Shown here piece by piece: positions 28,230-60,744 of a stretch of 64,000 bases of DNA. The translations under genes and the position numbers were made by a program. Each line of letters begins with the position of its first letter. Within the stretch, counting starts at the first letter, position 1. The DNA comes from an uncultured Candidatus Saccharibacteria bacterium. Its GTDB lineage: Bacteria > Patescibacteriota > Minisyncoccia > Phycocordibacterales > UBA9973. The DNA lies in assembly GCA_964362545.1 (NCBI GenBank), contig CAYIEM010000001.1:17424-81423 (forward strand). Reading direction: 5' to 3'. The notes under the pieces were generated by a model, which was not told where the DNA came from, did no database searches, and saw nothing but the letters and a program-made list of their open reading frames with translations.

Positions 28230-30161
28230 TTAATATTTCAGACTATGCACCAAAGTTTTAAGGAGAATTTCGAGTTCTATAGTGGCAACACCGACGACTC
28301 TGTCTCCCCCGCCGTAGTAAATATAGAGCATTTTCCCTCTTACAACCATCCCGCAGGGAAAAACCACATTGTTCACAATACCCGCTTTTTCATATTGCTC
28401 TTCCGGTTCGAAAATAGGTTCAGTACTCCGAGCAAGCACTATAGCTGGATCTTTTAAATCAAGCAGAACACACCCGACACGATACGTACTGTGGCTCTTC
28501 GACACACCATGGTAAAGTAAAAGCCAGCCATACTTTGTTTTAATGGGCGGAGCAGTTATGCCGACTTTGGCGCTATCCCACGTGTTTGCTCGAGGTCCGA
28601 TAATTCTTATGCATCTTTTCACGCTTTCATGTTTAAAATCAAGCGAGTTTAAATAATCGCCACAAATTTCATCACCTATGCGATGTAGAATAAAATAACC
28701 AGATGGGAATTTTGTGGGAAAAAGACAGGCATCTTTATCTTCAAATCCCGGTGGAGTAATAAGAAATGGTTTTTTCCAATTCCAATTATGAGAAACAAAA
28801 TCTTTTTCTGTGATAGAAGAGACAGCAACTCTCCAAGGTCCAGTGCTGTTGAATGCTGTATAGCATAAATAAATATTACTACCAATCTTGGTTAACCTCG
28901 GGTCTTCACAGCCAGAACTTTGGCCACTATTCTTTTTGCTCTCAAAATCTTCGCGCGGAATATAAACAGGCAACGGAAAACGTTTTATTATGTCACTGCC
29001 ATTTCTTGTGACTGCGTATCCGAACGTGGATGTATTGTCTCCCGACATTGCGCGATATAAAATATGTGTTTTTCCATCGAGCATTATCGCCCCGGGATTG
29101 AAGGTGGCCTGTGATTCCCATTCATTTTCATTTATGGGAACGATAATAGGGTTTTTGGGAGAACGTTTAAAACGAAAACGGTCTTTATATTCGTAATGTA
29201 TACTAAGAACGAGATCCGTCAAGTTAAGCTGAAAAGAGCATGCTGTGGTATCAGCCGCCCCGTAATATACAGTAAGAACGTCCTTCTTGGCTATAGCTCC
29301 AGTTGGAAAAACTACATTAGGAACGTAACCAGAAAGTTCATATGGTTCCTCGGGCACCAGCATCGGTCCTGCAGTTCTGCCGATTATTTTCATAGGATTT
29401 TTTAAATCAAAGAGAACAGCCTCAATACCGAATATTTTGTCGAGATTGTTGGGATTCGGAAAATAATTTTGAATATGGGAATAAACGATCAACCATCCAT
29501 ATTTGGTTTTTATAGGCGGAGCCCCGACCTCTACATGATCATAGGGAGAGCGTTTTAGATCAATAGTGTAATCGTCAATTTTTTCTTCCCATTTACTCCA
29601 AAACGCTGGCAACCATAATTCCTCCATCTTATCAAGAGTGGCAAAAACAAGCTTTGCGGGAGGAGAATCGGTATGGAAAGAAAACATCACCACAATCTTG
29701 CCATTTATTCGTTCCGGAAAAAGAGTCATTGCCTTTGCGTTAAATGGAGTCACTAAATGTCGTTCATGAACTTTTTTTAAGTTACGCGATAGCGCCACAG
29801 CCACCTTTATGCCTTCCGCGTTAAATGGAAATTCTCCAAGCGCAGTATAAAAAGTATAAAAAGTACCTTCAAAGTAAGTGACCCTTGGGTCCTCGCAACC
29901 AAACTTTTCCCATTTTTCTTGAGGAGTGATAAAAGGAGTACGATTTTTAAAATGCACCCCGTCTTTACTTGTACCAATGCCTATGACCGACACTTGGCGA
30001 GGATTTTGTAATATATCCACCGCGGAAATAGCTCTAAAAAGCCCGTAAAAAATACTACCGCGCTTAATGGGACAAAGATTAAAAGTTGCAAACTCTTCCC
30101 AGTAATGATCTATATCTGGAATTAGTATTGGGTTATGTTTAGATCTTCTTACTACATACAT
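28230..30161 (-). CDS. Tandem GH130-like (DUF377) beta-propeller glycoside hydrolase/phosphorylase-family protein
   Basis: 643 aa = two GH130 modules. Each has NP(I/A)I...FNPGAI and GCEDPR motifs (GCEDPRVTYF, GCEDPRLTKI). Confidence 0.6.
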   Translation of the reverse strand: MYVVRRSKHNPILIPDIDHYWEEFATFNLCPIKRGSIFYGLFRAISAVDILQNPRQVSVIGIGTSKDGVHFKNRTPFITPQEKWEKFGCEDPRVTYFEGTFYTFYTALGEFPFNAEGIKVAVALSRNLKKVHERHLVTPFNAKAMTLFPERINGKIVVMFSFHTDSPPAKLVFATLDKMEELWLPAFWSKWEEKIDDYTIDLKRSPYDHVEVGAPPIKTKYGWLIVYSHIQNYFPNPNNLDKIFGIEAVLFDLKNPMKIIGRTAGPMLVPEEPYELSGYVPNVVFPTGAIAKKDVLTVYYGAADTTACSFQLNLTDLVLSIHYEYKDRFRFKRSPKNPIIVPINENEWESQATFNPGAIMLDGKTHILYRAMSGDNTSTFGYAVTRNGSDIIKRFPLPVYIPREDFESKKNSGQSSGCEDPRLTKIGSNIYLCYTAFNSTGPWRVAVSSITEKDFVSHNWNWKKPFLITPPGFEDKDACLFPTKFPSGYFILHRIGDEICGDYLNSLDFKHESVKRCIRIIGPRANTWDSAKVGITAPPIKTKYGWLLLYHGVSKSHSTYRVGCVLLDLKDPAIVLARSTEPIFEPEEQYEKAGIVNNVVFPCGMVVRGKMLYIYYGGGDRVVGVATIELEILLKTLVHSLKY

Positions 30162-30167
30162 ACAAAT

Positions 30168-31397
30168 TTATCCAAACTTTAGTGATTTTTTCTTCTCTAA
30201 TTTGACTGCGCCATTTTTCTTCATACTCTCTATCAAATCATCAAGCACGATAGACGCCACGCCAACATGTTTATCTCCGCCGCCGTAATAAACGAAAAGC
30301 CTGTCGTCTTTAACTATGGCTCCACTTGCGTATATAATTCCCTTTTTCCAATCGTTTTCGTACCACAAATCCGGTTCTAGAATTGGATGTTGTGCTCGAT
30401 ATAAAATTCTCTCAGGATATTTTAAATCAAGTAAAAGCGCGCCCAACTTATAACGATCTCCATCATCCTTGTCCATGGCATGGTAAAGTAGAAGCCACCC
30501 GTCTTTTGTCTTGATCGGTGGTGAGGCGGCACTCCTCGTACGCTTATGCCAAGCCACTATGTGATCTGGCAAAGTCTGTGGGTCTGGAGCACCCGTATCC
30601 CTAGTGGGTGTTTCCCTGTCATCGAGCTCGCTTACGTAGGCAATTTTGACCCTGGTTGGATCACCAACATCTGGATTATGAAAAATTGCAAACTTACCGT
30701 TGATTTTTTCTGGAAATAGAACCCAATTCTTTTGTCTGTCTCCGGGACGAGAAAGATAAGCAAACTTACTCCATAACCATTTCTTATTTAACAAATTACC
30801 TTCCTTTATCGAAGTCACGGCGACGCGCATAGAGTTCCACCCATTGAACATATTGAAAGTCATATGTACATAACCATTCATCAAAACCGCGCGAGGATCC
30901 TCGCATCCACCCCATCCTCCTCCTGATGAATAAAGTACACTATCATATTCTGGTCTGGCTGGAGAAGTGTACGGCCAATGCTTTTTAACTTCTTCGATGT
31001 TCTGTACGAAATACACCGGCCAAAGAAGTCTTTCGTCGAAATTTATACCGTCTTTACTAGAAGCGTATCCAATGCGAGAAATCCCGTCTTCCCCTAGTGC
31101 TCTATAGAATAGATGTACTCGCCCGCCAGAAGAGATGGCAGCGGGATTAAAAACGGCTTGGGACTCCCAAAAATACGGTCTTGGCTCAACTATTGGATTG
31201 CGAAGAGACCTTGTAAGCTTGAGGCCTTTTTCCGATTTAGTTTTCTTAAGAATTTTTATCTTCCTGGGCAGAGTTTTAACTTTTGCTTTTTTTGAGAGTT
31301 TGACAACTTTTTTGCCTTTTTTCAACATCTTAGTTGAAACCCTTCCACTGACTATTTTTTTAATAGTCTTTTTTGTTGTTTTTAATACTTTTTTCAT
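30168..31397 (-). CDS. GH130-like (DUF377) protein with Lys-rich N-terminal tail
   Basis: N-terminal 60 aa are about 40% Lys (KKVLKTTKKTIKKIV...). Then SQAVFNPAAI...GGCEDPRAV GH130 module. Confidence 0.6.
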   Translation of the reverse strand: MKKVLKTTKKTIKKIVSGRVSTKMLKKGKKVVKLSKKAKVKTLPRKIKILKKTKSEKGLKLTRSLRNPIVEPRPYFWESQAVFNPAAISSGGRVHLFYRALGEDGISRIGYASSKDGINFDERLLWPVYFVQNIEEVKKHWPYTSPARPEYDSVLYSSGGGWGGCEDPRAVLMNGYVHMTFNMFNGWNSMRVAVTSIKEGNLLNKKWLWSKFAYLSRPGDRQKNWVLFPEKINGKFAIFHNPDVGDPTRVKIAYVSELDDRETPTRDTGAPDPQTLPDHIVAWHKRTRSAASPPIKTKDGWLLLYHAMDKDDGDRYKLGALLLDLKYPERILYRAQHPILEPDLWYENDWKKGIIYASGAIVKDDRLFVYYGGGDKHVGVASIVLDDLIESMKKNGAVKLEKKKSLKFG

Positions 31398-31501: not shown

Positions 31502-32005
31502 CTATTTTTTTATCTTTTTCGAGTATTCCCTTAAAAGCTCCGAGGAACTTCTCACTTTGCCCCCACGCCCAATATTAAAGACCATTTCAATACCCAATCT
31601 TTCGCACGTTTCTACATCATAATATAAAGAGGAATTCGGATTTCTGGCGTCTTCTTCATTTCTATCTCCCCCATTTGCAAAGACATGCGGTTTGATTTTA
31701 AACAATTCTTTGCTCACGCTCATATTCTTGGGACCTTTCGGATTTCTAGAATGTCCACTAATAATTACCCCATCTACACAAGCCAAAGCTTCTATAATCT
31801 CTTTGCGTTCGTGATCAGGCATAAAGACATGCTTCCTTTTTTGTCTTTTCCAATTATCATTATTTATGATAACAATTAATTTATCTCCCAATTTTTTAGC
31901 TTCCTGAAACATACGAATATGCCCGATATGAAGCGGGTCAAAACCACCGCTGACTGCCACCACTTTTTTATTTTTCCTGTTTTTGTTCTTCTTAGTAAAT
32001 GACAT
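31502..32005 (-). CDS. Cytidylyltransferase-like (HxGH) nucleotidyltransferase domain protein
   Basis: VVAVSGGFDPLHIGHIRMF HIGH-type motif of the CTP/ATP transferase superfamily (TagD/RfaE-II/PPAT-like). Basic N-terminal tail. Confidence 0.5.
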   Translation of the reverse strand: MSFTKKNKNRKNKKVVAVSGGFDPLHIGHIRMFQEAKKLGDKLIVIINNDNWKRQKRKHVFMPDHERKEIIEALACVDGVIISGHSRNPKGPKNMSVSKELFKIKPHVFANGGDRNEEDARNPNSSLYYDVETCERLGIEMVFNIGRGGKVRSSSELLREYSKKIKK

Positions 32006-32064
32006 TTTTTATTTTTATTTCTTTAATTTGCTAGATTTTCTGCGATAGCAGAATTTCTAGCACT

Positions 32065-33861
32065 TTAATACACTTCCTGTTGATAACATTTCTCACAGTA
32101 AACTATTTCTGGTCTGTCTGGTGCATAACCAGTTTTGAATTTCTCATTGCAAGGATTATCTCCATGCTCATGACTTACTGTGTTTTGATAAACACCAGTA
32201 CTGTCTTTCTCTCCCGCGCACATACAGGACCGTTCGTATAAACCTACCTTTAACCTGTCACTTATTCTGCGCTCGTGCCTACATTCACCGCAAATACGTG
32301 GTATCGACAATTTTTCCTTTTTAAAAAATAAAAATTCATTCTCTAGAATTTTATACGGATTTTTACATTCCTTACATTCTACTACTTCTTTTAAAATATT
32401 ATCGCTGACTTCGTTGATTGAATTTTCAAGCTCTGTTGCCTTTTTTGTCATTTTATAGTTGCCCCGGGACACTTCTATCCACGTATATCCTTTTTTCCTT
32501 GCTTCTGCTTCTGTTAGCGAAAAATGCTGCATCGCGACAGTATTGTTGTAACCGAGTGGAGAAAGTTCGGTAGGAAAAAATTCTCCATATTTATAAGTCA
32601 AACCCTGTGAATCTGTGTAAGGCATTTCATCCATGTGTTTTTTTATTTTGGGCACAAGTTTTTCATACTCTTCTTTAGAATATTGTTTGTTTAAAATACA
32701 ATACTGTTTCTTTTTTAAACCAACACAACCAAAGCAGTCTGAAGAACTAAAAAGGTGCGTACAATATTCATTGTTCCTTGAAGATGGCCAGCAACTGCGC
32801 GAGAATTTATTATTGTAAGAATTGTCTCCGCATTCTAAAGTTTCATAATTCATTTCGGTATGATCCCCCCAATTACAAGAATCATAATTATCTTTGTTGC
32901 CCGGAACTTGCATATATTGGCAATAGCGCATATTTTCGCTTTCTCTGATAAGATAACTGTCGTTTACGTTTTTGCAATTAGTGACATAAGATCCGGAAGA
33001 ATTTAAGTTTTTTAAACCCTGAAGATATTTGAAGGGAAAGGTGTTCCAAAAATTTCTGGCTTTTATTCTGGAGGCTTCAATGCTCAAGGCTGTATCAAGA
33101 TTCATTTTTTTCAATTCTTTAAAATATTCCTCCTTTGCGTATTTTTTATTAAAAATACAATATGAAGAATTGCGCAGATTAGCGCAACCGAAACAATTAT
33201 GACACGAAACACAATCCTTGCAAAACCACAAATCCCTGGAATCTGAAGACATTATTGTGAAATAGCACTGATAACAATTTTCTAACCAAAGACATTCGTA
33301 GCAACGCTCGGAATGTTTTACGTGAGAATTATCGACACAATCTTTACAAGAATCTATCCCGTTTCCATACATACAATCTTCAGAATCATTTGAGTTAACA
33401 ATCAAGTAACTATTCTTTACATAAGAAGCATTGAAAACATATGGACTATTGACAATTCCAATATTATTAAAGTTATATACCGGTACAACTTTATTTAATT
33501 CCTCAATTTGGATTAAAAACGGCTTCGTGAAGTCAATATCCACACTATACTTTATTGCATCAAAGTTGTCTCCGAACCATTCTTCTCTGGTCATTATTTT
33601 CCGACCACTTTCTTTTGGATATGAGGAAAAAATCTCTTTGCCTGTCAAAAAATTGACAACTTTGAAAAGTTTGCGCTCATTTCTCCAAGCCAACCTCCTC
33701 TGCGCCCGGCACAAGGGACAAAAAGTTGGTGGCGGCACCTGCATTTTTTCATAAAAAGAAAAATCATCCGGCTCAATGATGAAGTCTTTTTTACAGTTCT
33801 GGCAGTTTTTTGTTTCGTCTTGCATATCTTTTGCTTTTTGCCCTGTGGTGAATTCTAGCAT
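32065..33861 (-). CDS. Cys-rich repeat protein, paralog A (unknown function)
   Basis: 598 aa, about 50 Cys, no signal peptide. True start probably M13 (MQDETKNCQNC, ATG 33823-33825) by comparison with paralogs. Shares N-terminal CQNCKKxFxIEPDDFxFYxxxxVPPP..CP.CR..RR and C-terminal YxPDRPEI(V/I)YCExCY(Q/K)QEVY with paralogs B and C. Confidence 0.5.
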   Translation of the reverse strand: MLEFTTGQKAKDMQDETKNCQNCKKDFIIEPDDFSFYEKMQVPPPTFCPLCRAQRRLAWRNERKLFKVVNFLTGKEIFSSYPKESGRKIMTREEWFGDNFDAIKYSVDIDFTKPFLIQIEELNKVVPVYNFNNIGIVNSPYVFNASYVKNSYLIVNSNDSEDCMYGNGIDSCKDCVDNSHVKHSERCYECLWLENCYQCYFTIMSSDSRDLWFCKDCVSCHNCFGCANLRNSSYCIFNKKYAKEEYFKELKKMNLDTALSIEASRIKARNFWNTFPFKYLQGLKNLNSSGSYVTNCKNVNDSYLIRESENMRYCQYMQVPGNKDNYDSCNWGDHTEMNYETLECGDNSYNNKFSRSCWPSSRNNEYCTHLFSSSDCFGCVGLKKKQYCILNKQYSKEEYEKLVPKIKKHMDEMPYTDSQGLTYKYGEFFPTELSPLGYNNTVAMQHFSLTEAEARKKGYTWIEVSRGNYKMTKKATELENSINEVSDNILKEVVECKECKNPYKILENEFLFFKKEKLSIPRICGECRHERRISDRLKVGLYERSCMCAGEKDSTGVYQNTVSHEHGDNPCNEKFKTGYAPDRPEIVYCEKCYQQEVY

Positions 33862-33876
33862 ATGCTAGAATTCACC
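33847..33876. promoter_or_regulatory. Perfect 30-bp palindrome GGTGAATTCTAGCATATGCTAGAATTCACC
   Basis: Self-complementary over all 30 nt. Centred on the annotated ATG of paralog A, about 21 nt upstream of the more likely start. Confidence 0.5.
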
Positions 33877-33894
33877 GCGCTTAAATGTCATTCC

Positions 33895-35610
33895 TCAGTA
33901 TACTTCTTGTTTGTAACAACTTTCGCAATACACTATTTCGGGTCGGTCGGGAGAGTAGGAAGTCTCTATTGCTATATCGCATTTGTCACATTTGCGATTA
34001 TAAGTTTGCATTCCATTTAATTGCTTGATACGAGCTCTATCTCGACAAAGCGGGCAATGGCGCGGAATAGGTAAATTAAAACGTTTCAAGAACTGTAATT
34101 CTTTGGGGATTATCTGATAATTCTTCCCACATGCCTCACATTTCAAAATCGCCTTCAAAACATCGTCTGTGACATCTTTAATATGGTCGGGCAATATAAT
34201 GGTAGCATCTAAATATTCTCGTTGGTCAGGATCCCGCCAGGCAAAACCTCTCCCTATGGCCTCTTCTTTAGTGAGCGGAAAGAATTCGTAGGCAGTGGAC
34301 TCATTGTATGGCCAGGGACACAAATCAATTGGTATCTGTCCACCATACTTGTGCTCTAGTCCCCTTCTGTCAATGAAAGGAACTTCCATCATTTGTTTTT
34401 TAATTTTTTCAACCAATGGGAAATATTCTTCTTTGGTATATTGTTTATTAAAAATGCAATATTCGGCCTTTCGCAAACCGACGCAACCAAATAAATATCC
34501 ACATCCATGACAGCCAAAAGTATATTCCGTATCGTGATTGCGATAATTCCAGACGCTGAATTTTACATTGGAAGTATTATACCCCGTCCAAGTCGCCTCA
34601 TAGACCCATTCTGAAGTGGTGCCAAAAGCGGTAAAATCATAACAATTGTGCGCTGGACCCTTCAAAAACAGTTGCGCATATTTCAAATTTTCCGAGTCAG
34701 GAACATAGTACGCGTTATGAACATTCTTTGAATTATAAATATATTCTCCAGAGATGTTGTTGTTATTCCTGCCCAAAGTCGCCCGACGCGGATAATTTAG
34801 TGAAAAAGCATATGCCTGTTTTTTTAGTTTTTGTAAATTTTTTGCAGATCCCAAGTCAAATTCTTTTAATTTTTTAATATACTCTTCTCTTGTAAATTGT
34901 TCATTAAAAATGCAGTAATTTTTATTGCGCAAGCTTGTACAGCCAAAACAATCCCCGCAATTAATCAAATCGCGCGAAAAATAAATGTTTTGACAATTTT
35001 CACAATCCTGCGAGAAAAAAGTCTGGAAACATTTGCGAACATCTACTATCTCATAACAGAGTTCTGGGTCTGCTGAATATGCCACCTCTAGAGAATCTTT
35101 GGTGTTTAAAGCGACATTAGTATACGCAGAATCTTCGCCAGTAATATGTTTAAAACACAGGTAATCATTTTTTTGGAAACTGGCGGCATTGCAATATTCG
35201 CTATTCACCATAGTGCTGTATTCCGTATGAAGCGACGCTTTGGGAACCTCATCCATCAATTCTTTAAATTGTTCAAAAAAGGATCTAGAAAAATCATATT
35301 CCCTGCCGTAACTTTTCGGATCCCATTTGTCACCCCACCAAATATCTTGTTTATATACTTTATACGGTAAATCCGGATGGTAGAACGTGATAATATTCTC
35401 TCCGGTAAAATCACATTTGCGTTTGTATAATATCCTATAACCGTACCAAGCCATTCTGCGAAGCAACCTGCAATGCGGGCACCACACGGGAGGCGGCACT
35501 TTCATCTGCTCATAAAATCCAAAATCGTCTGGTTCAATAATGAAGTTTTTTTTACAGTTTTGACATTGTTTAGTTTCACTTTGTGTATTCATTTTGTCGT
35601 TTTGCAACAT
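33895..35610 (-). CDS. Cys-rich repeat protein, paralog B (unknown function)
   Basis: 571 aa. Likely start M7 (MNTQSETKQCQNC). Internal repeats CxNCxxIYFSRDLINCGDCFGCTSLRNKNYCIFNEQFTREEY and CHGCGYLFGCVGLRKAEYCIFNKQYTKEEY. Confidence 0.5.
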   Translation of the reverse strand: MLQNDKMNTQSETKQCQNCKKNFIIEPDDFGFYEQMKVPPPVWCPHCRLLRRMAWYGYRILYKRKCDFTGENIITFYHPDLPYKVYKQDIWWGDKWDPKSYGREYDFSRSFFEQFKELMDEVPKASLHTEYSTMVNSEYCNAASFQKNDYLCFKHITGEDSAYTNVALNTKDSLEVAYSADPELCYEIVDVRKCFQTFFSQDCENCQNIYFSRDLINCGDCFGCTSLRNKNYCIFNEQFTREEYIKKLKEFDLGSAKNLQKLKKQAYAFSLNYPRRATLGRNNNNISGEYIYNSKNVHNAYYVPDSENLKYAQLFLKGPAHNCYDFTAFGTTSEWVYEATWTGYNTSNVKFSVWNYRNHDTEYTFGCHGCGYLFGCVGLRKAEYCIFNKQYTKEEYFPLVEKIKKQMMEVPFIDRRGLEHKYGGQIPIDLCPWPYNESTAYEFFPLTKEEAIGRGFAWRDPDQREYLDATIILPDHIKDVTDDVLKAILKCEACGKNYQIIPKELQFLKRFNLPIPRHCPLCRDRARIKQLNGMQTYNRKCDKCDIAIETSYSPDRPEIVYCESCYKQEVY

Positions 35611-35635
35611 ATTTGAATATTCTCATTCTATAATT

Positions 35636-35935
35636 CTATAGAATATTAGAATAGTTATTCATAAATTTATAAGAAAAGGGTTCCGCGTATTTTTCTAAAA
35701 CAATTCTCTCGTATTTATCTAGCTTATCAAATCCTAGAATAAAATTCTTAACCACATTCCATTCTTCTCTCCCAGCAGGAATTATATCTCTAAAATTTAA
35801 TATTTTATTTACAATGTCTAATGAACGAATCTGAGCATTTTGCGCGGCCTCTATTTTCCCAGAATCTAAAAAGGAAAACATTCTTCTGATTTCCGGATAT
35901 AAGTTTGCCATATAAAAAAGCGAATCTTTTTTCAT
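35636..35935 (-). CDS. Hypothetical 99-aa protein interposed in Cys-rich paralog cluster
   Basis: Co-directional and tightly spaced. No homology recognised. Confidence 0.4.
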   Translation of the reverse strand: MKKDSLFYMANLYPEIRRMFSFLDSGKIEAAQNAQIRSLDIVNKILNFRDIIPAGREEWNVVKNFILGFDKLDKYERIVLEKYAEPFSYKFMNNYSNIL

Positions 35936-35980
35936 AATTTTCTATTCTAATATTCTATAGAATTATAGAATACTTTCCCC

Positions 35981-36352
35981 TTACTTCTTCAAATCAATAA
36001 ACTTATGAATAATCTCCCTGGCTTTTTTCATTATCTCTTCATTGCCTATATTCCTGGAGCGGTTGCCAAAATTTGGTTTTATGTTAACCATGGAATCGAA
36101 CTCCAAAGCCCCATTCGGATTTTCCTCAAAGCGAATATTGAAACCCCAAATATCTTCAAATTTTGAACCAGTACCCGTCAACAACTCAGAACCCTCGATA
36201 TGATAGTCACCGCCTAAAGCAACTCTGCCAATCTCTATATCGACAGCCCCTTTTATCATAGTTCCATACCAAAAATCCGCCAATCTCTTTACCTCCTCTA
36301 TAAAAATTTTATGGTCTAGAATCGTTATCTTCGTATCCATATTTGTGAGCAT
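35981..36352 (-). CDS. Hypothetical 123-aa protein interposed in Cys-rich paralog cluster
   Basis: Co-directional and tightly spaced. No homology recognised. Confidence 0.4.
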   Translation of the reverse strand: MLTNMDTKITILDHKIFIEEVKRLADFWYGTMIKGAVDIEIGRVALGGDYHIEGSELLTGTGSKFEDIWGFNIRFEENPNGALEFDSMVNIKPNFGNRSRNIGNEEIMKKAREIIHKFIDLKK

Positions 36353-36384
36353 TTTAGCACGATTCTAGCTTGATTGAAAGAATG

Positions 36385-38097
36385 CTAGTACACCTCCTGC
36401 TGATAACACTTTTCGCAATAGATTATTTCTGGACGGTCGGGTGTATAAGAAGTTTTGAATTTATTATCGCATCCTTCTTTCATGCAAGACCTTTCCCAAA
36501 GTTTTAACGGATTTCTTAGTTTCAAACGTTCATAATGCCTGCAGTTTGGACAAAGTCTCGGCAACGGCAAGTTCATTCTCTTGTAAAATTTAAGCTCTTC
36601 AGAAACTATTTTAAATGCCTCGGTACATTGATCTTTGCATTTGCCTCCGTGGCTACAGGCTATGACCTTGCTTATTATGTCGTCTGAAACATCTTTTATA
36701 TTGTCAGGTATATCTTCGTTTTCTATGTCTATTTTATAATTCCTAACCTCTCTATCTTGCCACAGGTATCCCTTCGCTAAAGCCTCTTCCTTAGTCAGCG
36801 GAAAATATTCTTGCGCGATAGTTTCGTTATAAGCAAACGGTGAAAGTTCTGAGGGAAAAAATTCACCGTATTTGTAAACTATTTCTCTCTTGTCTATGTA
36901 AGGCATTTCCTCCATGTGTTTGATAATTTTTGGCAACAATTGTTCATATTCTTCCTTGGTATATTGTTTGTTTAGGATACAATAACTTTTCTTTCGTAAA
37001 CCTTCACAACCGAAGATATTTGAACAATCATGACACTCTTCGTTATAACGAGAGTCGTGATTTGAGTGATTCTTTACACCAAAAGCCGTATTCGAACCAC
37101 TAAAACCATGGGCTATTTCATATAGTAACTCAGCGCCAAAACCTTGAAATGATGTGTCATAACAATCTTTTGATTTATTTCTACAGAAAAAAAGATACTT
37201 CGAATCTTCCACTTGTCGAGAACTGAAAGCATTGTGGGTGTTGCGGGCTTCAAACAAATCGTCTCCAGTAGAATTAACAGATTTATAAACCTGAGCATAG
37301 CGACGAGGTATGGTCAACGCCAAGTCGTATAATCTCTTTCTAATATCAGCATGAGATTTTAAACCGCCTAAGTTGATTTTTTCTATAAATTTTTGATATT
37401 CTTCTTTTGAAAATTGTTGGTTAAAAACATTGTGTTGTTTGTTGCGTAAGCCCACACACCCGAAACAACTTAAACAATTCTTGCAATCTAGAAGATACCA
37501 GCTGTCTACACAATCTTCAGAATAAGAACTGAAAAATAATTTATTGGTCCTGGCGCACTCAAAAAGCTCATAACTAAATTCCAATTTTTCAGAAAACGCC
37601 ACATCCAGAGAGTCTTTGGAATCAAACAATTGATTTGCGAAATAAACTCTTTCGTTATTGATACCTCCAAATACAAGGTAGCATTCCTTCATGTCAAGCC
37701 CATAATTGCAATACTCACTAGAAATGAAATTTGTTTGATACATATTTTCTCTAGGCACTGCAACCTGAAGCGCGCGAAATTGGGTAAAAAATGGTACAGA
37801 AAAATCATGTTCTTTCCCATAACTTAAAGGGTCCCACTTATCGGAAAGCCAACACTCACGACAATAGATGGTATATGGTTTGTCTTTGGAATAAATAGTT
37901 AGAAGATTTTTTTTACACATACCACATTCACGTCTATAAAAAACCCTATTATTACGGAACAACAATCTTCTTTGAAACCTGCAATCCGGGCAAAATGTCG
38001 GTGGAGGCACTTTTATTTTTTGGTAAAAATTAAAATCATCCGGTTCGATAGTAAAATCTTTCTTGCAATTTTGACATACCTTCGTCTCAGAATTCAT
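36385..38097 (-). CDS. Cys-rich repeat protein, paralog C (unknown function)
   Basis: 570 aa. MNSETKVCQNCKKDFTIEPDDFNFYQKIKVPPPTFCPDCRFQRR...CYQQEVY. Same architecture as A and B. Confidence 0.5.
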   Translation of the reverse strand: MNSETKVCQNCKKDFTIEPDDFNFYQKIKVPPPTFCPDCRFQRRLLFRNNRVFYRRECGMCKKNLLTIYSKDKPYTIYCRECWLSDKWDPLSYGKEHDFSVPFFTQFRALQVAVPRENMYQTNFISSEYCNYGLDMKECYLVFGGINNERVYFANQLFDSKDSLDVAFSEKLEFSYELFECARTNKLFFSSYSEDCVDSWYLLDCKNCLSCFGCVGLRNKQHNVFNQQFSKEEYQKFIEKINLGGLKSHADIRKRLYDLALTIPRRYAQVYKSVNSTGDDLFEARNTHNAFSSRQVEDSKYLFFCRNKSKDCYDTSFQGFGAELLYEIAHGFSGSNTAFGVKNHSNHDSRYNEECHDCSNIFGCEGLRKKSYCILNKQYTKEEYEQLLPKIIKHMEEMPYIDKREIVYKYGEFFPSELSPFAYNETIAQEYFPLTKEEALAKGYLWQDREVRNYKIDIENEDIPDNIKDVSDDIISKVIACSHGGKCKDQCTEAFKIVSEELKFYKRMNLPLPRLCPNCRHYERLKLRNPLKLWERSCMKEGCDNKFKTSYTPDRPEIIYCEKCYQQEVY

Positions 38098-38151
38098 CTA
38101 TTTATTATAACAAAACTAGTCAATTTTCCCAGTGTTTGGTACAATTTATTT

Positions 38152-38670: not shown

Positions 38671-39438
38671 CTAATTTGCCCAAATAACGAAAGTATAAGC
38701 TTTTTCGCCATTGCCAAAATCTCGCTCATACAAAGAGCTTCGCTTGTTTCTATCTTTAGATTCACGAACTTTCTTCCCCCATTCTGCTCTATCATCTAGA
38801 TCAACTGAAACATTCGCAGAAATAATTTTACTGAAAGATGTGTTCACTGTGTCTAAATGCGAATAGATGGATTCGAGTTGGTCATAATCATGTTGGTTTG
38901 GATGTTGGTTGCTTGTAGGGTCGTTGGTGTAATCCATGCATGTACCTAAATTCGCGTTACTAAAATTCTCGTCTTGATGGTCTAGGCCAAATGTATGACC
39001 GATTTCCTGACACATAACCAAGTTTCTCCAAGCGGTAGTGTTATAAGTCGGGGTGTTAAAATAAGTATCGTTGTTTTTGACAGTGCCTTGAGTAATATGA
39101 GAACCTGAAATCCAGATTTGGGCTATCCCCAACCAACCGTTATTGCCATATTTATTATTGCATACCTCCACTCTTCCTTTGGTCGGCCGGCAATTTTTAG
39201 GACTGCTTCGTCCGGCGATGACATTGGTATCAAGCACCGTGGACGCGCTCCAGTCACCGGAAGTCGTGACTAAAATAGAATCCCAAACACCGGATACATT
39301 GTCGCCAAGTTTGAGAGCAAAAGGATTTGCCGTTCGTGCCCAATGATAAGTACCCCAAGAATGATTGGCCTGAACTGTGCCAACAACAACAAACGCTAAT
39401 AGTACAACTATCCCTAAAATTATGCTATATTTTTTCAT
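38671..39438 (-). CDS. Secreted metzincin-like protein with variant QEIGHTFGLDH motif
   Basis: Signal peptide. Motif QExxHxxGxxH where canonical metzincins have HExxHxxGxxH. Downstream Met-turn-like CMDY. Confidence 0.35.
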   Translation of the reverse strand: MKKYSIILGIVVLLAFVVVGTVQANHSWGTYHWARTANPFALKLGDNVSGVWDSILVTTSGDWSASTVLDTNVIAGRSSPKNCRPTKGRVEVCNNKYGNNGWLGIAQIWISGSHITQGTVKNNDTYFNTPTYNTTAWRNLVMCQEIGHTFGLDHQDENFSNANLGTCMDYTNDPTSNQHPNQHDYDQLESIYSHLDTVNTSFSKIISANVSVDLDDRAEWGKKVRESKDRNKRSSLYERDFGNGEKAYTFVIWAN

Positions 39439-39477: not shown

Positions 39478-39924
39478 CTATTCTTTTCTTTCTAAATCCT
39501 CTTCAATGTCAGTTAAACGATGAGATATTTCTTTTACCTCCTTCTTTATTTCCCCTATCATTCCTGTTTCAGTTTTTATCTCCTCTTCCGTTTTTTCTTC
39601 CAGTCTTTCTTCTCCCCTTATTCCTGAGATTATAGCCTGACTGCCGATGAAATCGAAAACAAACAGCCCGGTGGATAATAGCAGGATCGATCCGATGGCT
39701 ATAGAGAGTGGTCCATCCCACCAGGGTAATGTGCCTAGGTCGATGGTTTCATTCTGCTGGAAAGTAAAAATTACTTCTGTTAAAAAATCAGCCGTGTGCC
39801 AAACGCCTCGCCAAAATATCACAATGCCGACTCCGCCTAGGAACGCGTACAGTATGGGATAGCGGGAAAGCTTCCCCCTGATTTCATCCTCGAGTTTATC
39901 AAAAAATCTATATATGCGCTTCAT
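39478..39924 (-). CDS. Small 2-TM membrane protein with acidic coiled-coil tail (paralog of 4684-5034)
   Basis: Same architecture: two hydrophobic helices, then EERLEEKTEEEIKTE...IEEDLERKE. Confidence 0.4.
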   Translation of the reverse strand: MKRIYRFFDKLEDEIRGKLSRYPILYAFLGGVGIVIFWRGVWHTADFLTEVIFTFQQNETIDLGTLPWWDGPLSIAIGSILLLSTGLFVFDFIGSQAIISGIRGEERLEEKTEEEIKTETGMIGEIKKEVKEISHRLTDIEEDLERKE

Positions 39925-41256: not shown

Positions 41257-43191
41257 CTATATGCCTTCTTTATTTCTTTTACTAGTTATGCCGACTAGAG
41301 TCAATATCATCATGATAATGACAACGACAATCACTACAACCACATAGAGATTGTCATTCTTAAGCAACCCAGGTTTATCAGCGCTCGCAGCTTCCGCGAT
41401 ATTGGTGTCTAAGAGAGTCACGGCTTCTGCAGTCTTAGTGAACAGATAAGGGGAACTCTTTGCAATAATATTTCCGGAATTATTAACTGTCGCAGTGTAG
41501 ATGGTATGGTCGCCATTTTCTAATTCTTTGTCTAATATATATTGCCACTCTCCCCTCTCATCAGTTTTAACGGTAACAATTATAGGCGTACTATATATGT
41601 ATAGAGTGACAAAACTATTCGGCAAGGCCTGACCCTTAATGACAACCTTTTTTTCTTCGGTCAACGTCATTTCTTTGACTTTGTATGTCAGAACTGTGAG
41701 CGCGCCAGACTCCACTGGCTCTTCTTTTTCTATCTTCACCAACTCAGTTTTAGCCGGATCAAACCCTAGTAAAACTTTCTCTGAGGCTCCAATATCTTTT
41801 CCTTCGTAGGTGGAAACAGGGGAAGGCGCGACAGGATTTATGTTGTAAACATATATGGAGTCATAATCGGAAATACCATCACTGTTGCTATCTTTGTAGA
41901 GAAGGTCGGCCTCTTGCCTCTTCAGTGGCAGAGACTGATTGCTTACCGCTTCAGATAACAAGTCCAAGGCCTCTGCCACATCCTCCAAATCTGTGTCATT
42001 CGTAGCTGTTTTGGAAATAGTAGTGGATTCGGAAGTGACTAATTCTATATATTTGATTGCTTCATTCATCTCTGTTTCCAATTCCTTGATATCCGTAGGG
42101 GTGACTATTGCTTCAGTAGACAAACTTTCGTCTACATTCTCTAAAAGCTCATCGCGCAAAGCGTTGATTTTAGTTGTATCAGTTTCCTGACTTGAACCTT
42201 CGTTATTTTCAATAATTTTCGTGACACTTTGATTAATTATCTTCTCCAACTCTTCTCTAGAATCATCCACCACATCTTGGTGATCTTCTACAACAATTCC
42301 TAGGTTTTGGATTTTTAGTGAAGAATCATTTATAAGCGGAGTGGGCGCAACGGTTGTTGTAGTTGTTGGGTCAATCCCTGCTGTAGTGCCCTTAGTACCA
42401 CTCGCAAACTCAGTACCTGTAGCACCTTGAAATGACACAATACTATCGTGTGGAGTAGTAACCTTGTGTAAATAAGCATACTCGGAACAGCCAATTTCCG
42501 GATAACAAGCTTTGATGCGATAGTCGTAGGTTCTCCCCGCTACCACAGTATTGTCATAGTAAGAAACAGCGCTTGCGCGTTTTATTTCAGCTAAATTGGA
42601 CCAGCTGGACTCGTCGCTCGACTTCCTGCTTATACTAAATCCGTACACATTGGCAGCTTTGTTTGTCCACTTTAAGGGAATGTATGTTGACGTCGGAGAG
42701 CCATTTAGCGACAAATTCTCTGGAGCAAGTGGAATAGTTTTTGTAGTGGTCAATTGAGTTGATGAAGATGGTTCTGTGCTACTGCCACTCGAAGTCGAGG
42801 AGGTGGTCGTCGTGGTTGTAGTCGTAGGTACTGTCGTAGTCGTGGGTGTATTAGTGGAATCTGTGCCGCTGGTATTTGAAACTGTATCTGTGGTCATGGG
42901 GGTATATGTCGTGGTAGAGCCAGTGTCACCACCACTACTTGAAGTCGTAGTCGTAGAAGTCGTGCGCGTTGTGGTGGAGCCGGTGCCGCTACCACCTGAT
43001 ATCCCTGATGTAGTGGACGTAGAAGTAGTATATGTGCTCGGTGTTGTATTAGTGTTGATACCGCCCAGGCTTGAAGTTGAATCCTCCGCAAGTATAATGC
43101 CCCAAATTACGGATAGGATTATCACAAAAACAACAGCTAAGATAATTTCTTCTATCCTCGTAGATAATAAGTTTGAAGTTCTTTTTTTCAT
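41257..43191 (-). CDS. Thr/Ser-rich cell-surface protein with fibronectin type III domain, N- and C-terminal TM anchors
   Basis: Long poly-T/S low-complexity region. FN3-like segment PLAPENLSLNGSPTSTYIPLKWT...YDYRIKACY. C-terminal hydrophobic helix VVVVIVVVIIMMILTLVGI. Confidence 0.5.
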   Translation of the reverse strand: MKKRTSNLLSTRIEEIILAVVFVIILSVIWGIILAEDSTSSLGGINTNTTPSTYTTSTSTTSGISGGSGTGSTTTRTTSTTTTSSSGGDTGSTTTYTPMTTDTVSNTSGTDSTNTPTTTTVPTTTTTTTTSSTSSGSSTEPSSSTQLTTTKTIPLAPENLSLNGSPTSTYIPLKWTNKAANVYGFSISRKSSDESSWSNLAEIKRASAVSYYDNTVVAGRTYDYRIKACYPEIGCSEYAYLHKVTTPHDSIVSFQGATGTEFASGTKGTTAGIDPTTTTTVAPTPLINDSSLKIQNLGIVVEDHQDVVDDSREELEKIINQSVTKIIENNEGSSQETDTTKINALRDELLENVDESLSTEAIVTPTDIKELETEMNEAIKYIELVTSESTTISKTATNDTDLEDVAEALDLLSEAVSNQSLPLKRQEADLLYKDSNSDGISDYDSIYVYNINPVAPSPVSTYEGKDIGASEKVLLGFDPAKTELVKIEKEEPVESGALTVLTYKVKEMTLTEEKKVVIKGQALPNSFVTLYIYSTPIIVTVKTDERGEWQYILDKELENGDHTIYTATVNNSGNIIAKSSPYLFTKTAEAVTLLDTNIAEAASADKPGLLKNDNLYVVVVIVVVIIMMILTLVGITSKRNKEGI

Positions 43192-55774: not shown

Positions 55775-58700
55775 CTAAACCGTTGGCTTTATCATCTTTT
55801 CAATAAATTTAATTTCATCTTTCGTTAATTTATACTTTTTATATAATTGCTTATCAATTTCTCCTATTGATTGTTTCCAGTCTATATCTGATTTTGAAGT
55901 AAAATCTTGAAGCGGAACAAATTGGTATACATTTTGAAGAACATTCTGAGAAGTTTTTAAAATGCCCACCATGTATCTAAAAAATTTTGTTTTTATGTAA
56001 GATGCAAGAGCGAGGGCTTCAAGTTGTGTATTAAACTGACCAATTGGAATCAATGAATCTGTGCACACAGATTTTGGTCCAGCTAAATATGGTTTACCCA
56101 AGATTGAGACTTCTTTTTTGTCTGTTAATAACCCAGCACCTCCATTACCTTTAGAAATGAAAATTTTCCATTTATCAGCTAAATTAGTGTTTTTAGTAAT
56201 GTATTTTTTTTCGACGTATCTAATTTCTTCATACTTACATCTTAATTTATAGTATTTATCCTTCTTTTTGTTTGTCGATATTTTTTTTGTGTCTTTACCT
56301 AATATACCAAATGCATTTCTACCTTTTGTAATATTTGTTATAGACTTAAAATCATTACTTTTTACTTTGCTTATTATATTGTGACTAAAACTACTACTTA
56401 GAATTATATCAAGACCTTCTTCAAATAAAGGGCGTTTTTTAGTAATAAAATTTTGCTCATCATAAAACTCAGTGAATTCAACATCTCCTCGATATTCTGG
56501 ATTATACAAAAAGTAATTAACACCACCACTGATCTCTACATCTGGAAAAACTTTACTCGAGATTGGAATATTAACAATACTTTGTAAATGATTATTTTCT
56601 TTAAAAAACTCTCTCAGCCTTAAAAACGATTTGTCTTGCGCATCACCAGTAAACCATCGCGACGGAGTAACCAACGATAAATATCTTGGATTAAGGCCAA
56701 TTGACATTTTAATGAAATCTGGAAAAATCTGTCTACTTAAAGATTTATTCTTTGAATTATTACTAATTGTCTGCTGGTATGGTGGGTTTCCCACAATTAC
56801 ATCAAATTTCATATAGTTATTGTTTATTATAACACTTTCATTCTTGATTAGTTCATCTTCTTCAATCAACTCATAAGACGTAATATTTTTTTCGATGTGT
56901 TCGATATTTAATTCTAGCAGAGCATATACTTTTCTTGTAAATTCATAGGCTATCTTAGATGTGGGGATAGAATAAAAATTATTTGCTACATCTTTACCAA
57001 ATTTCTTATATACAGCGTAGATAAATTCACCTCGTTTTGAAGCGATATCAAGTAGTTTTGTAGATTTACTAATTGCTTTTTCTGGTAATGTGCTAATGAT
57101 TTTATCTGCCATAAATTCAGGAGTTACAATTTCAGAATCAGACAAACGACTAAATTTTTTCAGAGCATTACTTGCTCTTTCTACTGGTCTAATGGTTGAA
57201 TCGTTTGCTAATGAATTTATATTGTGAATTTTGTAATCCAACTCACTGAGCACAAATGGATTGATATGTTTTTGAAACAAAGTAAGTATATTTTTACTAA
57301 TTCCTATATTTGAAACAATACGCACATTCTTTTCATCACTTTCAATTGCATGGATTACATCTTGGAGTGATTTGATTCTTGAATCAGTAAGGAGCGCAAA
57401 AAATAATATTTTAGCGTAGTACATCGCAAACTTTTTCTTATAATCTTCTTCTAAACCGTTTTCATCTGCGTCAGATTTTTTATCCAGCTCATTTGTTTGC
57501 GTGTTTTCTTTTACAACTTCTCCGAGGTCAATATCATCGCCTTCACCTTCAGCAGATTTGACTTCTAATCCCTGCCTTGATCCTATCTCATTTTGTCTTT
57601 CAATTTCAGCTTTAATTTCATCTATATTTAATAGAGAAAGATCCACCCCAATTGAGGTTGCCTCATCAATCACACTTCTATTACTTGAGTACTGTCTTAC
57701 TGCATCAATAATATTTGCTGGTTGGATTTCTACGATTTTATTTTTGTTTAAAACAATAATCGGAGATATGGCGAGTTCTCTTCTGATTCTTTCTTCCAAC
57801 TTAGAATTGCCATTCGATTCTATGTTTACATTATAAATTTGAGACTTATGCTCCTGCATTTCAAACATTCTGTTTGGATTAAAATCCACAAGGAGCGTTT
57901 GAGGCTTCATATTATATTTCACCGTGTCACCACCTTGTTCTTTATAAACTCGTACATACTGATTCTGCAGACGGAATATTGCTTGATCATATTCCTGAGG
58001 TGATGATGTATCTTTGAAATACAACATTGTATCCCATTCTGGCACCGTGCTCCCTGTGAGCATTCTGTTCACCGTTAACGTGATTGTTTTTATATCTTTA
58101 TTTTCACACTCTTTAATCTTTAATTGTACCGATTTGATATCTTTATAATTCTTATCACCATTAACACCTGAAATATTTATAATTTTATATTTACCAAGAT
58201 TTTTGAATGTATTCTTTTTAATTAATTCTTCTAACGCGTCACACGATGCTCTGAAAGGCAATACGCAGATAATATGACGACACATGTTACCTTTTTTTAA
58301 TTTATCGTAGTCAAGAAAACTTAATATATTTTCATCTTCTTTTGATCCGTCTATTACCTTTAATAACTCAATTATTTCTTTTTCGTGTTCAAATTTTTTA
58401 TGTAAATTATTTTTTGTATCTTTAGTTATTGATATAGGTTTAAATAATACAGAAAATGTGTAGGTAATACCATTTCTTTTAAATTCCTCCATTTTTTTAC
58501 GTGAGGACTCATTTGGATTAAATGCGAATCGAACCATCTGCGGAAACCCATAATATGGATTATCCCATTCTTTTACTTCGTCTTTATGTAGATTGTCTCT
58601 ATCCCATCTCTCTTGATCTTCTGCAATATTCGAAAACTGATAGAAAGCAATAATGTCTTCATCTGTAAATTCACTATTCATCAAAATCCGATATGGTGTT

Positions 58701-59740: not shown

Positions 59741-59741
59741 T

Positions 59742-60740: not shown

Positions 60741-60744
60741 ATAT

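Follow-up and report, generated by a model that had tools for sequence, protein, structure and literature searches.

Secretion loci of type IV and type VII typically place an ATPase of the FtsK/VirD4 class beside an array of paralogous substrates, and HerA/FtsK-class ATPases are also found in some defence systems. The type IV coupling proteins (VirD4/TrwB) with their substrates or adaptors and, by analogy, EssC of type VII with its paralogous substrate arrays are comparable to the gene clusters described here, where ATPases of this superfamily are encoded directly beside paralogous non-enzymatic arrays. At the level of single proteins, the zf_Tbcl-type zinc-finger families are the sole Pfam and NCBIfam matches that can be interpreted as homology, and all of these matches stay below the cut-off. 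CPR genomes encode 5,713 coupling-protein homologues, and just 148 of these have a type IV secretion system in their vicinity (2025 preprint). The gene-order link between this family and VirD4-like ATPases bears on the question raised in that preprint as to why such orphan homologues exist.

Layout of the locus

The window, that is, the whole 64-kb stretch of DNA that was analysed, contains five same-direction minus-strand ORFs in its ORF list. These and the associated elements are, in the direction of transcription:

38104..38112, minus strand: candidate extended -10 promoter TGtTATAAT, read by eye, ending 6 nt before the P1 start codon
36385..38097, minus strand: large paralog P1, 570 aa
35981..36352, minus strand: DUF5674 protein, 123 aa, first of the small-gene pair
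35944..35975, minus strand: second copy of the ATTCTATAGAAT-core palindromic element, between the DUF5674 gene and the 99-aa gene
35636..35935, minus strand: 99-aa protein, second of the small-gene pair
35625..35656, minus strand: palindromic element with core ATTCTATAGAAT, between the 99-aa gene and P2
33895..35610, minus strand: large paralog P2, 571 aa as listed; likely start Met7, nt 35592
33847..33876, minus strand: perfect 30-bp palindrome in the P2-P3 spacer, predicted to fold into an RNA hairpin
32065..33861, minus strand: large paralog P3, 598 aa as listed; likely start Met13, nt 33825
32029..32062, minus strand: hairpin right after the P3 stop codon, before a cytidylyltransferase-like gene

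The five-gene cluster agrees with what an earlier note on this DNA had described: the three large proteins are paralogs with pairwise identities of 42-45% over their full length, and they share the N-terminal and C-terminal motifs that the note had written out. P1, P2, and P3 are ancient paralogs within a very large family, here termed FAM. P2 and P3 have probably been annotated with starts too far upstream; alignment with the family favours Met7 and Met13, because the first CxxC of family members mostly lies at residue 8 or 10. The cytidylyltransferase-like gene comes after P3. The 123-aa ORF belongs to DUF5674 (PF18924; 70.5 bits against a gathering cut-off of 27, covering profile positions 2-109 of 109). 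For the 99-aa protein, 191 homologues (71-100% identical) were found and no Pfam or PDB match, the best hits, UPF0223 (E=0.09) and BAG5 (E=0.72), both being non-significant.

The palindromes that had been noticed at the gene junctions exist, and two of them fold far better than shuffled sequence (z about -6), namely the P2-P3 spacer hairpin (-24 kcal/mol, z=-5.96) and the hairpin following P3 (-17.6 kcal/mol, z=-6.5), with 0 of 200 shuffles as good in either case. The 28-32-nt palindromic elements that border the 99-aa ORF on either side reach -7.1 kcal/mol (z=-1.6) next to P2 and -8.9 kcal/mol (z=-2.7) next to the DUF5674 gene. The CTAGAAT motif common to the palindromes shows no enrichment in the window. 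Given the candidate -10 element, the P1 transcript would be leaderless or near-leaderless; a consensus promoter scan did not single out this element.

Architecture and cysteines of the large proteins

Self-comparison together with an AlphaFold model of P1 (pLDDT 90.8, pTM 0.91) divides the protein into five parts:

37813-38097, minus strand: N-terminal double zinc module
37363-37812, minus strand: solenoid module A
36922-37362, minus strand: solenoid module B
36670-36921, minus strand: linker domain
36388-36669, minus strand: C-terminal double zinc module

FAM proteins are soluble, cytoplasmic proteins of about 570 aa. In the predicted fold they form a rigid pseudo-duplicated rod with a body of two narrow beta-solenoid modules made of 12-residue coils, capped at the N- and C-terminus by LIM-like double treble-clef modules that putatively bind zinc; an acidic linker domain sits ahead of the C-terminal zinc module. 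By profile self-comparison, residues 4-83 match residues 477-565 (E=1e-19), the second copy of the N-terminal module near the C-terminus that had been proposed, and residues 105-241 match residues 254-391 (E=1e-27), a duplication of about 137 aa. The internal CxxCxxCFGC...KEEY repeats are present as well, but there are two per protein rather than the several previously counted, each ending one of the duplicated ~137-aa modules. Membrane segments are absent from P1, P2, and P3 (maximum 19-residue hydropathy <=0.88) and from the family (above 1.6 in 0/181 members), and no signal peptide was found, the first CxxC usually lying at residue 4-10, all in keeping with the earlier description.

The conserved Cys4 sites of P1 are C8/11/36/39, C58/61/79/82, C481/491/516/519, and C538/543/561/564. 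The model shows treble-clef topology in both terminal modules, with strands 4-7 and 14-17 at C8/C11 and helix 37-45 at C36/C39 in the N-terminal one, and helices 517-525 at C516/C519 and 562-568 at C561/C564 in the C-terminal one, the second CxxC of the treble clef being placed at the helix N-terminus; these Cys columns are 74-100% conserved across FAM. Conserved putative Cys4 zinc sites number only three or four. In the solenoid, cysteines occur strictly at every third position (autocorrelation of FAM cysteine frequency 0.67 at lag 3 and 0.57 at lag 12) and are close to zero in the other two phases (<=4% in any module A column), and the 12-residue coils have an inward-facing small or Cys residue every third position. 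Because these cysteines exchange freely with Ser, Leu, Val, or Thr across FAM and keep the every-third spacing, they are read as a structural core ladder and look structural rather than metal-binding. The total number of cysteines, given earlier as about 45-55 per protein, is in fact 31, 29, and 35 in P1, P2, and P3, respectively; the family median is 38 (range 26-49).

The family and its gene neighbourhoods

FAM is large, falling into some 2,100 clusters at 50% identity, and is seen almost only in Patescibacteria, a restriction that the earlier note had named as a check. The large paralogs fit no family in Pfam, NCBIfam, PADLOC, or the PDB, and the note had not been able to assign a known one either; FAM has neither a Pfam family nor a solved relative, and no literature on it was found. 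Tandem arrangement is a general property of the family: two or more copies occur in 55 of 84 loci, with the largest array packing nine into 21 kb, while many members stand alone in unrelated contexts (the other 29 loci; L163 and L164). Patescibacteria genomes are smaller than 1 Mb, yet a single 21-kb stretch can carry up to nine copies of a 570-aa protein; FAM must therefore matter to the biology of these bacteria.

In other genomes, orthologues of P1, P2, and P3 and of the small-gene pair belong to one supercluster, which is set in the grpE-dnaK-dnaJ-rsmE heat-shock operon and bracketed by two P-loop VirD4/TrwB-like ATPases of the FtsK/HerA superfamily (Pfam TrwB_AAD_bind, TraG-D_C, DUF87). 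Its order is dnaK, a long ATPase that shares the zinc finger of FAM and bears it, as a true zf_Tbcl_2 finger, on a flexible tail, FAM members, the DUF5674 and 99-aa genes, a short ATPase, and dnaJ. The orthologues occupy fixed slots. P1 orthologues (72-75% identity) are the FAM gene following dnaJ (L001, L031); P2 orthologues (~60%) are the second FAM gene after the small-gene pair and precede rsmE, the short ATPase, and dnaJ (L086, L103, L110); P3 orthologues (68-69.5%) directly follow the long ATPase (L022, L101). The DUF5674 and 99-aa genes are an obligate pair, the latter directly following the former in 60/69 loci. Their association with FAM, likewise a check named beforehand, was found within three genes in 33 of the 69 loci, and in all four genomes looked up individually the pair lies inside the supercluster. 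A VirD4/TrwB-like P-loop ATPase lies near FAM in 31 of 78 loci (within 500 bp in 23), all from related genomes, and the loci, having been sampled by similarity to P1 or DUF5674, constitute a phylogenetically biased sample. ATPase, dnaK, and dnaJ genes are absent from the entire 64-kb window, which holds a condensed, motor-less version of the supercluster; since these most informative partners lie outside the window, they could not be seen by the earlier reader.

The dnaK, purine, mreB, and secDF operons have FAM genes embedded in them. Where the synteny is of the secDF type, the cluster also encodes a 74-aa protein with two TM segments, a TM-anchored protein of 460 aa, and a protein with a single TM segment. 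Further recurrent neighbours are an MsbA-like ABC exporter inside the cluster (at least seven loci), CutA1 (five loci), and, beside or inside arrays, rsmE, a ribosome hibernation factor (recognised by eye from its sequence, not by HMM), and a sigma-like HARE-HTH protein; occasional insertions in the arrays are Fic genes and toxin-antitoxin genes (MNT/HepT, Gp49/HTH).

Possible functions

The reading that we tentatively prefer, at somewhat less than an even chance, is that FAM proteins are cytoplasmic zinc-finger-tipped scaffolds or adaptors, possibly hetero-oligomeric, working with the orphan VirD4-like ATPases. Their terminal zinc modules would be the docking points both for the motors, which would be hexameric ATPases, and for a client that is polyanionic or a protein, different paralogs would confer different specificities, and DUF5674 and the 99-aa protein may be accessory subunits of what would be a chaperone-linked, ATP-driven translocation or remodelling machine. 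Zinc would be bound just at the three or four terminal Cys4 sites, leaving the solenoid cysteines a structural role. We infer the physical coupling of FAM and ATPase from gene order alone, since the window lacks an ATPase and many family members are solitary. Also to be set against the scaffold reading, synteny within a single clade may reflect descent rather than function, and the zinc finger common to FAM and the long ATPase is a small, generic one for which FAM scores below the Pfam cut-offs. A search for catalytic or binding sites in FAM identified none. Rather doubtful is the more far-reaching proposal that the arrays, the two orphan ATPases, DUF5674, the 99-aa protein, and the small membrane proteins together constitute an undescribed Patescibacteria-specific, ATP-driven machine wired into the dnaK-dnaJ operon, whose solenoids would assemble as hetero-oligomers into a scaffold or filament, to be loaded, translocated, or remodelled by the motors. 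If true, such a machine would account for most of the orphan coupling-protein homologues, thousands in number, that CPR genomes encode. The placement in the dnaK operon provides a concrete, testable link to proteostasis or chaperone-assisted translocation.

The resemblance of arrays beside VirD4-class ATPases to secretion loci could alternatively mean that FAM is beta-helical cargo, exported to the cell surface or to host cells by a membrane-associated route dependent on a VirD4-like coupling protein, where it would serve episymbiotic attachment with its Cys ladder oxidised to disulfides outside the cell. The membrane proteins of the secDF-type cluster and the ABC exporter would fit such a route, dnaK and dnaJ could hold the cargo export-competent, and the other known Cys-ladder 12-residue beta-helices are secreted antifreeze proteins. 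However, a signal peptide is lacking and both termini are folded zinc fingers, tightly folded zinc proteins being unusual as type IV substrates; conservation is housekeeping-like rather than diversifying, the orthologues hold their fixed slots, and virB4, relaxase, or channel genes are not among the annotated recurrent neighbour clusters. We regard export as unlikely. A similarly low probability is assigned to nucleic acid binding, in which FAM would work with VirD4-like DNA pumps in DNA uptake or processing by cells unable to make nucleotides, or in the handling of RNA or ribosomes. That CPR bacteria rely on DNA uptake has been discussed (PMC6744442), Pfam defines the families of TrwB/VirD4 relatives as DNA translocases, and rsmE, the hibernation factor, and the HARE-HTH protein recur at the arrays. 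Among family members, 99% have a basic C-terminal treble-clef segment (median charge +5), and both terminal modules of P1 have a pI of about 9, whereas the whole FAM protein is net negative (median charge -6) and N-terminal modules are weakly basic across the family. Moreover, profile and PDB searches gave no match to a nucleic-acid-binding family, and what the zinc modules resemble most, though not significantly, are the protein-binding LIM domains.

A metal-binding or redox role for FAM, whether in buffering zinc, iron, or copper, in carrying Fe-S clusters as a scaffold, or as a sink for thiol redox, appears improbable; the earlier note had raised it as a multi-metal-binding or redox scaffold. 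Cysteine makes up 5-6% of residues, the CxxCxxCxxC coil C205/208/211/214 is 81-96% conserved, and CutA1 and the ABC exporter are neighbours; yet the exporter is a generic MsbA-like one, module B, the duplicate, has not conserved this coil, Ser and Leu standing at two of four positions, and most solenoid Cys columns are just 30-55% Cys, with P1 lacking most of them. The pattern is indeed unlike that of ferredoxin or rubredoxin, as had been noted, with no Fer4 or rubredoxin match at E<=1. The idea of an anti-phage defence or conflict system fared worst and is now highly improbable. While the ATPase class, the Fic and toxin-antitoxin insertions, and, at a distance of about 18 kb within the window, an island with restriction and GmrSD genes speak for it, PADLOC-DB gave no significant match to the five proteins (best Cas5d/Csc1, E=0.0066, 14 bits over 52 residues; Csf1, E=0.096) and none whatsoever to the two small ORFs, FAM is essentially absent from viral contigs, and immediate neighbours, host operons, and evolutionary rate are all of a housekeeping kind.

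Comparison with known systems

In contrast to type IV systems, the Walker-A ATPases of FAM clusters are mostly soluble, without an N-terminal TM anchor, and are encoded inside a dnaK operon; the window has none. The zf_Tbcl and zf_Tbcl_2 families (PF13451, PF23477; TIGR04272, CxxC-x17-CxxC), described as probable treble-clef zinc fingers, have the same CxxC...CPxCR and CxxC...YCxxC spacings as FAM. The P3 N-terminus scores 17.9 bits with PF13451 (cut-off 24) and the P2 C-terminus 16.9 with PF23477 (cut-off 27) and 15 with TIGR04272 (cut-off 36), while P1 matches none of the three. Such domains span about 15% of a FAM protein, the solenoid and linker having no counterpart there. LIM domains (CRP1; 1b8t, 1ctl), which gave the best PDB sequence resemblance of the zinc modules at a non-significant E of 0.1-0.9, likewise combine two contiguous Cys4-type treble-clef-like sites in about 55-90 residues, but are eukaryotic and use mixed Cys/His ligands. 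Hexapeptide left-handed beta-helix transferases and gamma-carbonic anhydrases have an 18-residue coil instead of the 12 residues of FAM, in which neither a hexapeptide-repeat HMM match nor trimer-interface active-site residues were found. The predicted solenoid is closer to the antifreeze proteins of Tenebrio molitor (1ezg) and spruce budworm (1m8n), a fold analogy and not membership, as 4-8% identity amounts to no sequence homology and the FAM coil consensus lacks the Thr-x-Thr ice-binding face. The insect proteins are secreted, whereas FAM, five times larger and zinc-finger-capped, is cytoplasmic; a Cys-ladder solenoid that is cytoplasmic and has double treble-clef fingers as its caps would, if the predicted fold is correct, represent an unusual structural type.

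The five-gene cluster and its surroundings

The minus-strand cluster at positions 32065-38097 consists of five co-directional open reading frames (ORFs) with intergenic gaps of 25–45 nt, three of which encode large paralogous Cys-rich proteins (P1, P2, and P3):

36385-38097, minus strand: P1, ORF, 570 aa
35981-36352, minus strand: DUF5674 protein, ORF, 123 aa
35636-35935, minus strand: 99-aa protein, ORF
33895-35610, minus strand: P2, ORF, 571 aa as annotated
32065-33861, minus strand: P3, ORF, 598 aa as annotated

The paralogs align end to end with 42–45% identity, and no fourth member is present within the 64-kb window. The N- and C-terminal motifs described in the earlier note are invariant across the alignment; its figures of 45–55 cysteines and "several" CxxCxxCFGC...KEEY repeats per protein have to be lowered to 31, 29, and 35 cysteines and to two repeats. 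The annotated starts of P2 and P3 probably lie 6 and 12 codons too far upstream, respectively, as judged from the position of the first CxxC in the family, most often residue 8 or 10.

The common strand and the short gaps suggest a single transcription unit, which may run on into the genes for the cytidylyltransferase and the GH130 proteins. A TGtTATAAT element read from the sequence has its 3′ end 6 nt ahead of the P1 start codon and may constitute the promoter of a leaderless transcript. Strong hairpins occur in the P2–P3 spacer (−24 kcal/mol, z about −6) and 3′ of P3 (−17.6 kcal/mol, z about −6), and two weaker palindrome copies lie one on each side of the 99-aa gene; processing, stabilization, or attenuation could be their roles. 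The cytidylyltransferase-like gene directly downstream of the array (31502-32005) is possibly co-transcribed, and two neighboring GH130 (mannoside phosphorylase-like) genes after it (28230-31397, minus strand) possibly belong to the array transcript; one GH130 protein (643 aa) has two GH130 stretches in Pfam and may be a two-domain form. Upstream of the array, three minus-strand ORFs (41257-43191, 644 aa; 38671-39438, 255 aa; 39478-39924, 148 aa) lack a Pfam match at E≤0.001. The 255-aa protein displays, by eye, a signal-like N-terminus and an HTFGLDH metalloprotease-like motif.

The remaining window is ordinary chromosome, with LeuRS, DnaE, HisRS, GAPDH, GroEL, a two-component system, and GH130 enzymes. 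It belongs to an 81.8-kb Patescibacteria contig from groundwater, which is present in the Hainich samples. LeuRS (531-3524, minus strand, 997 aa) is an unusual fusion in which a NUDIX hydrolase domain at residues 404–500 (Pfam E=4e-14) is inserted after the editing domain. A restriction/defense island (55775-63207, minus strand) sits in a low-GC part of the window (0.30–0.35 vs ~0.40) and encodes a 1,321-aa protein in which T5orf172, ResIII helicase, and Eco57I-type methylase are fused, followed by a 332-aa protein without family and an 820-aa Mrr_N and GmrSD_N protein.

Architecture, size, and range of the protein family

Comparison of a 112-sequence family profile against itself revealed two mutually independent internal duplications, one of a terminal module (residues 4–83 vs 477–565, E=1e-19) and one of a central module (residues 105–241 vs 254–391, E=1e-27). 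The AlphaFold2 model of P1, built on the 112-sequence family alignment, is confident (mean pLDDT 90.8, pTM 0.91) and predicts a double zinc finger at each end: a CxxC knuckle in a beta-hairpin and a second CxxC at the N-terminus of a helix adopt a treble-clef arrangement, after which a second site of like kind follows. Three of the Cys4 sites are conserved in the family (C8/11/36/39, 96–100%; C481/491/516/519, 74–99%; C538/543/561/564, 97–98%), and only about half of its members retain all four cysteines of the remaining one, C58/61/79/82.

The central 300 residues form a narrow solenoid in two copies, with 12-residue coils (autocorrelation 0.67 at lag 3 and 0.57 at lag 12) and with cysteines at a strict period of three, nearly none occurring in the other two phases. 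The ladder columns are typically just 30–80% Cys, the alternatives being Ser, Leu, Val, and Thr; in P1, most of them are occupied by Val, Ser, or Leu, and the sole well-conserved CxxCxxCxxC coil (C205–C214) has C-S-L-C as its counterpart in the duplicated module. Because of these exchanges, we read the solenoid cysteines as an inward structural ladder like that of the 12-residue-coil insect antifreeze helices, rather than a series of metal sites. One 715-aa member (L086, 801-2945) contains three solenoid modules instead of the usual two, as judged from two overlapping profile matches; the module count can therefore vary inside the family.

Among Pfam and NCBIfam models, only zf_Tbcl, zf_Tbcl_2, and TIGR04272 give homology-like matches to family proteins, none of which reaches its cut-off. 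P1, P2, and P3 match no characterized family in these collections, in agreement with the first reading, which had assigned them to none. The proteins are cytoplasmic in character.

A word-indexed search returned at least 7,999 significant matches among 8,000 candidates scored, the best 120 of which are full-length, 67–83% identical, devoid of any Pfam domain, and all unnamed or "hypothetical"; the names among them are Patescibacteria lineages (Paceibacterota, Nomurabacteria, Staskawiczbacteria). An exhaustive search with the profile, covering 1.84 billion cluster representatives, matched 2,103 clusters below E=1e-30 and 4,839 below E=1e-3; its best 150 matches are mostly 540–610 aa long. In a one-genome-per-species scan, at least 574 family loci were found; the best 79 derive from Patescibacteria MAGs and a few bins labeled otherwise. 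Three loci, L031 (JAMPXW010000002.1), L034, and L074, belong to MAGs labeled Burkholderiales, Bacteroidales, or Gammaproteobacteria, yet hold family members. Since L031 shows full synteny with the Patescibacteria supercluster—a conserved group of dnaK, a long ATPase, family genes, DUF5674 with the 99-aa gene, a short ATPase, and dnaJ—these labels seem to stem from mistakes in binning or naming and not from occurrence outside the CPR. Among 2.9 million viral contigs searched, there was a single marginal match. In L011, a relative syntenic with the window, identity is 83% for HisRS, 66–73% for other neighbors, and 67% for the P1 orthologue; the family therefore evolves at an ordinary housekeeping pace.

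Gene context and the supercluster

When genes were called in 84 related loci and family members marked by profile, one copy was found in 29 loci, two in 22, three in 15, and four to nine, packed in about 21 kb, in 18. Tandem arrays, whose complete absence elsewhere would have told against a dedicated module, are thus common, 55 of the 84 loci holding at least two copies. By clustering, the commonest non-family neighbor is a VirD4/TrwB/HerA-like protein (Pfam domains TrwB_AAD_bind, TraG-D_C, DUF87, and T4SS-DNA_transf). If a Walker A motif is required, 31/78 loci contain an ATPase, which in 23 of them lies within 500 bp of a family gene; for loci of at least 15 kb the figure is 22/50, against an expected ~5% derived, with kinship ignored, from the published ~two such genes per CPR genome. 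According to a 2025 preprint, only 148 of 5,713 CPR VirD4 homologues lie near virB4, and exaptation is possible.

The soluble ATPases come in a short (~490 aa) and a long form (~650–790 aa), the latter with a low-complexity tail that bears a genuine zf_Tbcl_2 finger (43 bits); this finger, VIFPPEPGRAVYCKNC, is closely like the family C-terminal finger, SYTPDRPEIIYCEKC. A related Trp-rich protein of ~460 aa groups with the VirD4-like ATPases in BLAST clustering and has an N-terminal TM segment, without a Walker A motif or a Pfam match:

L026 6506-7885: ~460-aa Trp-rich TM protein; equivalents in L018, L027, L033, L036, L045, L068, L075, and L081

Downstream of secDF, it always comes after a sigma-like HARE-HTH protein and a 74-aa protein with two TM segments. 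Two gene orders illustrate the context. One comprises a divergent PaaX-like regulator, dnaK, long ATPase, one to three family genes, often rsmE, short ATPase, dnaJ, a family gene, a 6–7-TM protein, and arginase; the other runs secD, secF, sigma-like HARE-HTH, 74-aa 2-TM protein, TM protein, 1-TM protein, long ATPase, family array, cutA, short ATPase, and pgk. Further copies stand within purine operons or alone, and some, by gene sizes and order, look as if they lie within mreBCD operons. An MsbA-like ABC exporter (590–605 aa, fused TMD and NBD) is present in at least seven superclusters (L090, L092, L095, L102, L103, L115, L148), in several of them located between the long ATPase and family genes or DUF5674.

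The 123-aa protein matches DUF5674 over the full domain (70.5 bits). Its listed homologues are 73–100% identical, those of the 99-aa protein 71–100%, and they are spread over many Patescibacteria. The two genes are absent from the 78 loci sampled via P1; sampling via DUF5674 gave a different picture: in 4/4 genomes, the pair lies inside the dnaK/long ATPase/family/short ATPase/dnaJ cluster. Of 69 DUF5674 loci in a metagenome scan, 60 have the 99-aa gene directly after DUF5674, 33 have a family member at most three genes away, and 27 contain an ATPase, so that the family does occur with the small ORFs. DUF5674 relatives under ~60% identity have other gene contexts. The DUF5674 model (pLDDT 82.8) has no fold match in the PDB, and the 99-aa protein no significant match to anything searched. 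In L011 and L070, the window's closest syntenic relatives, the slot of this pair is taken by a 132-aa protein between family paralogs (L011 6066-6461, L070 4744-5139) that, by eye, looks like a ribosome hibernation factor (HPF/RaiA).

The family is thus linked by gene order to two VirD4-like P-loop ATPases, dnaK/dnaJ, and the small-gene pair. The paralogy is ancient, with fixed orthologous slots. Best-hit mapping pairs P1, as orthologue, with the family gene located after dnaJ (72–75% identity), P2 with the second of the family genes that come after the DUF5674/99-aa pair (~60%), and P3 with the gene directly after the long ATPase (68–69.5%). The window's five genes therefore represent a condensed supercluster minus ATPases, dnaK, and dnaJ, none of which is found anywhere in the 64-kb window.

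Possible roles and relation to known systems

The paralogs may act as rigid zinc-finger-tipped scaffolds or adaptors, possibly building hetero-oligomers. Their terminal double fingers would dock them onto hexameric motors and a client, and the long ATPase would be held to that target through its own finger copy. This scaffold or adaptor reading, drawn from gene order in a biased sample, is tentative, its chances somewhat below even. Membrane partners and the ABC exporter would also suit exported cargo or adhesin-like helices, but such a role is unlikely for slowly evolving proteins that have no signal peptide and whose ends are folded zinc modules. A nucleic-acid-binding partner of DNA pumps would agree with the basic C-terminal finger; the chain is net acidic, however, and matches no nucleic-acid-binding family, and we regard such a role as improbable.

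Two ideas of the earlier note fare worse. A metal-binding or redox scaffold is hard to reconcile with solenoid cysteines that swap with Ser and Leu, and is quite doubtful. A defense or conflict system is very improbable, given no significant PADLOC match, no mobility, housekeeping neighbors, and near-absence from viral contigs.

Family proteins passed no membership test against characterized families, and no paper was found on the family, DUF5674, or the zinc-finger models; Méheust et al. describe Parcubacteria-enriched families as mostly hypothetical. We therefore rate family and supercluster, with function read from gene order in a skewed sample, as fitting no known kind. The nearest named entities, zf_Tbcl and zf_Tbcl_2, span part of the protein below cut-off and are themselves without known function, and the resemblance to LIM domains is non-significant. 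Antifreeze-type 12-residue beta-helices offer an analogy of fold only, and coupling-protein-plus-substrate modules an analogy of gene order only.
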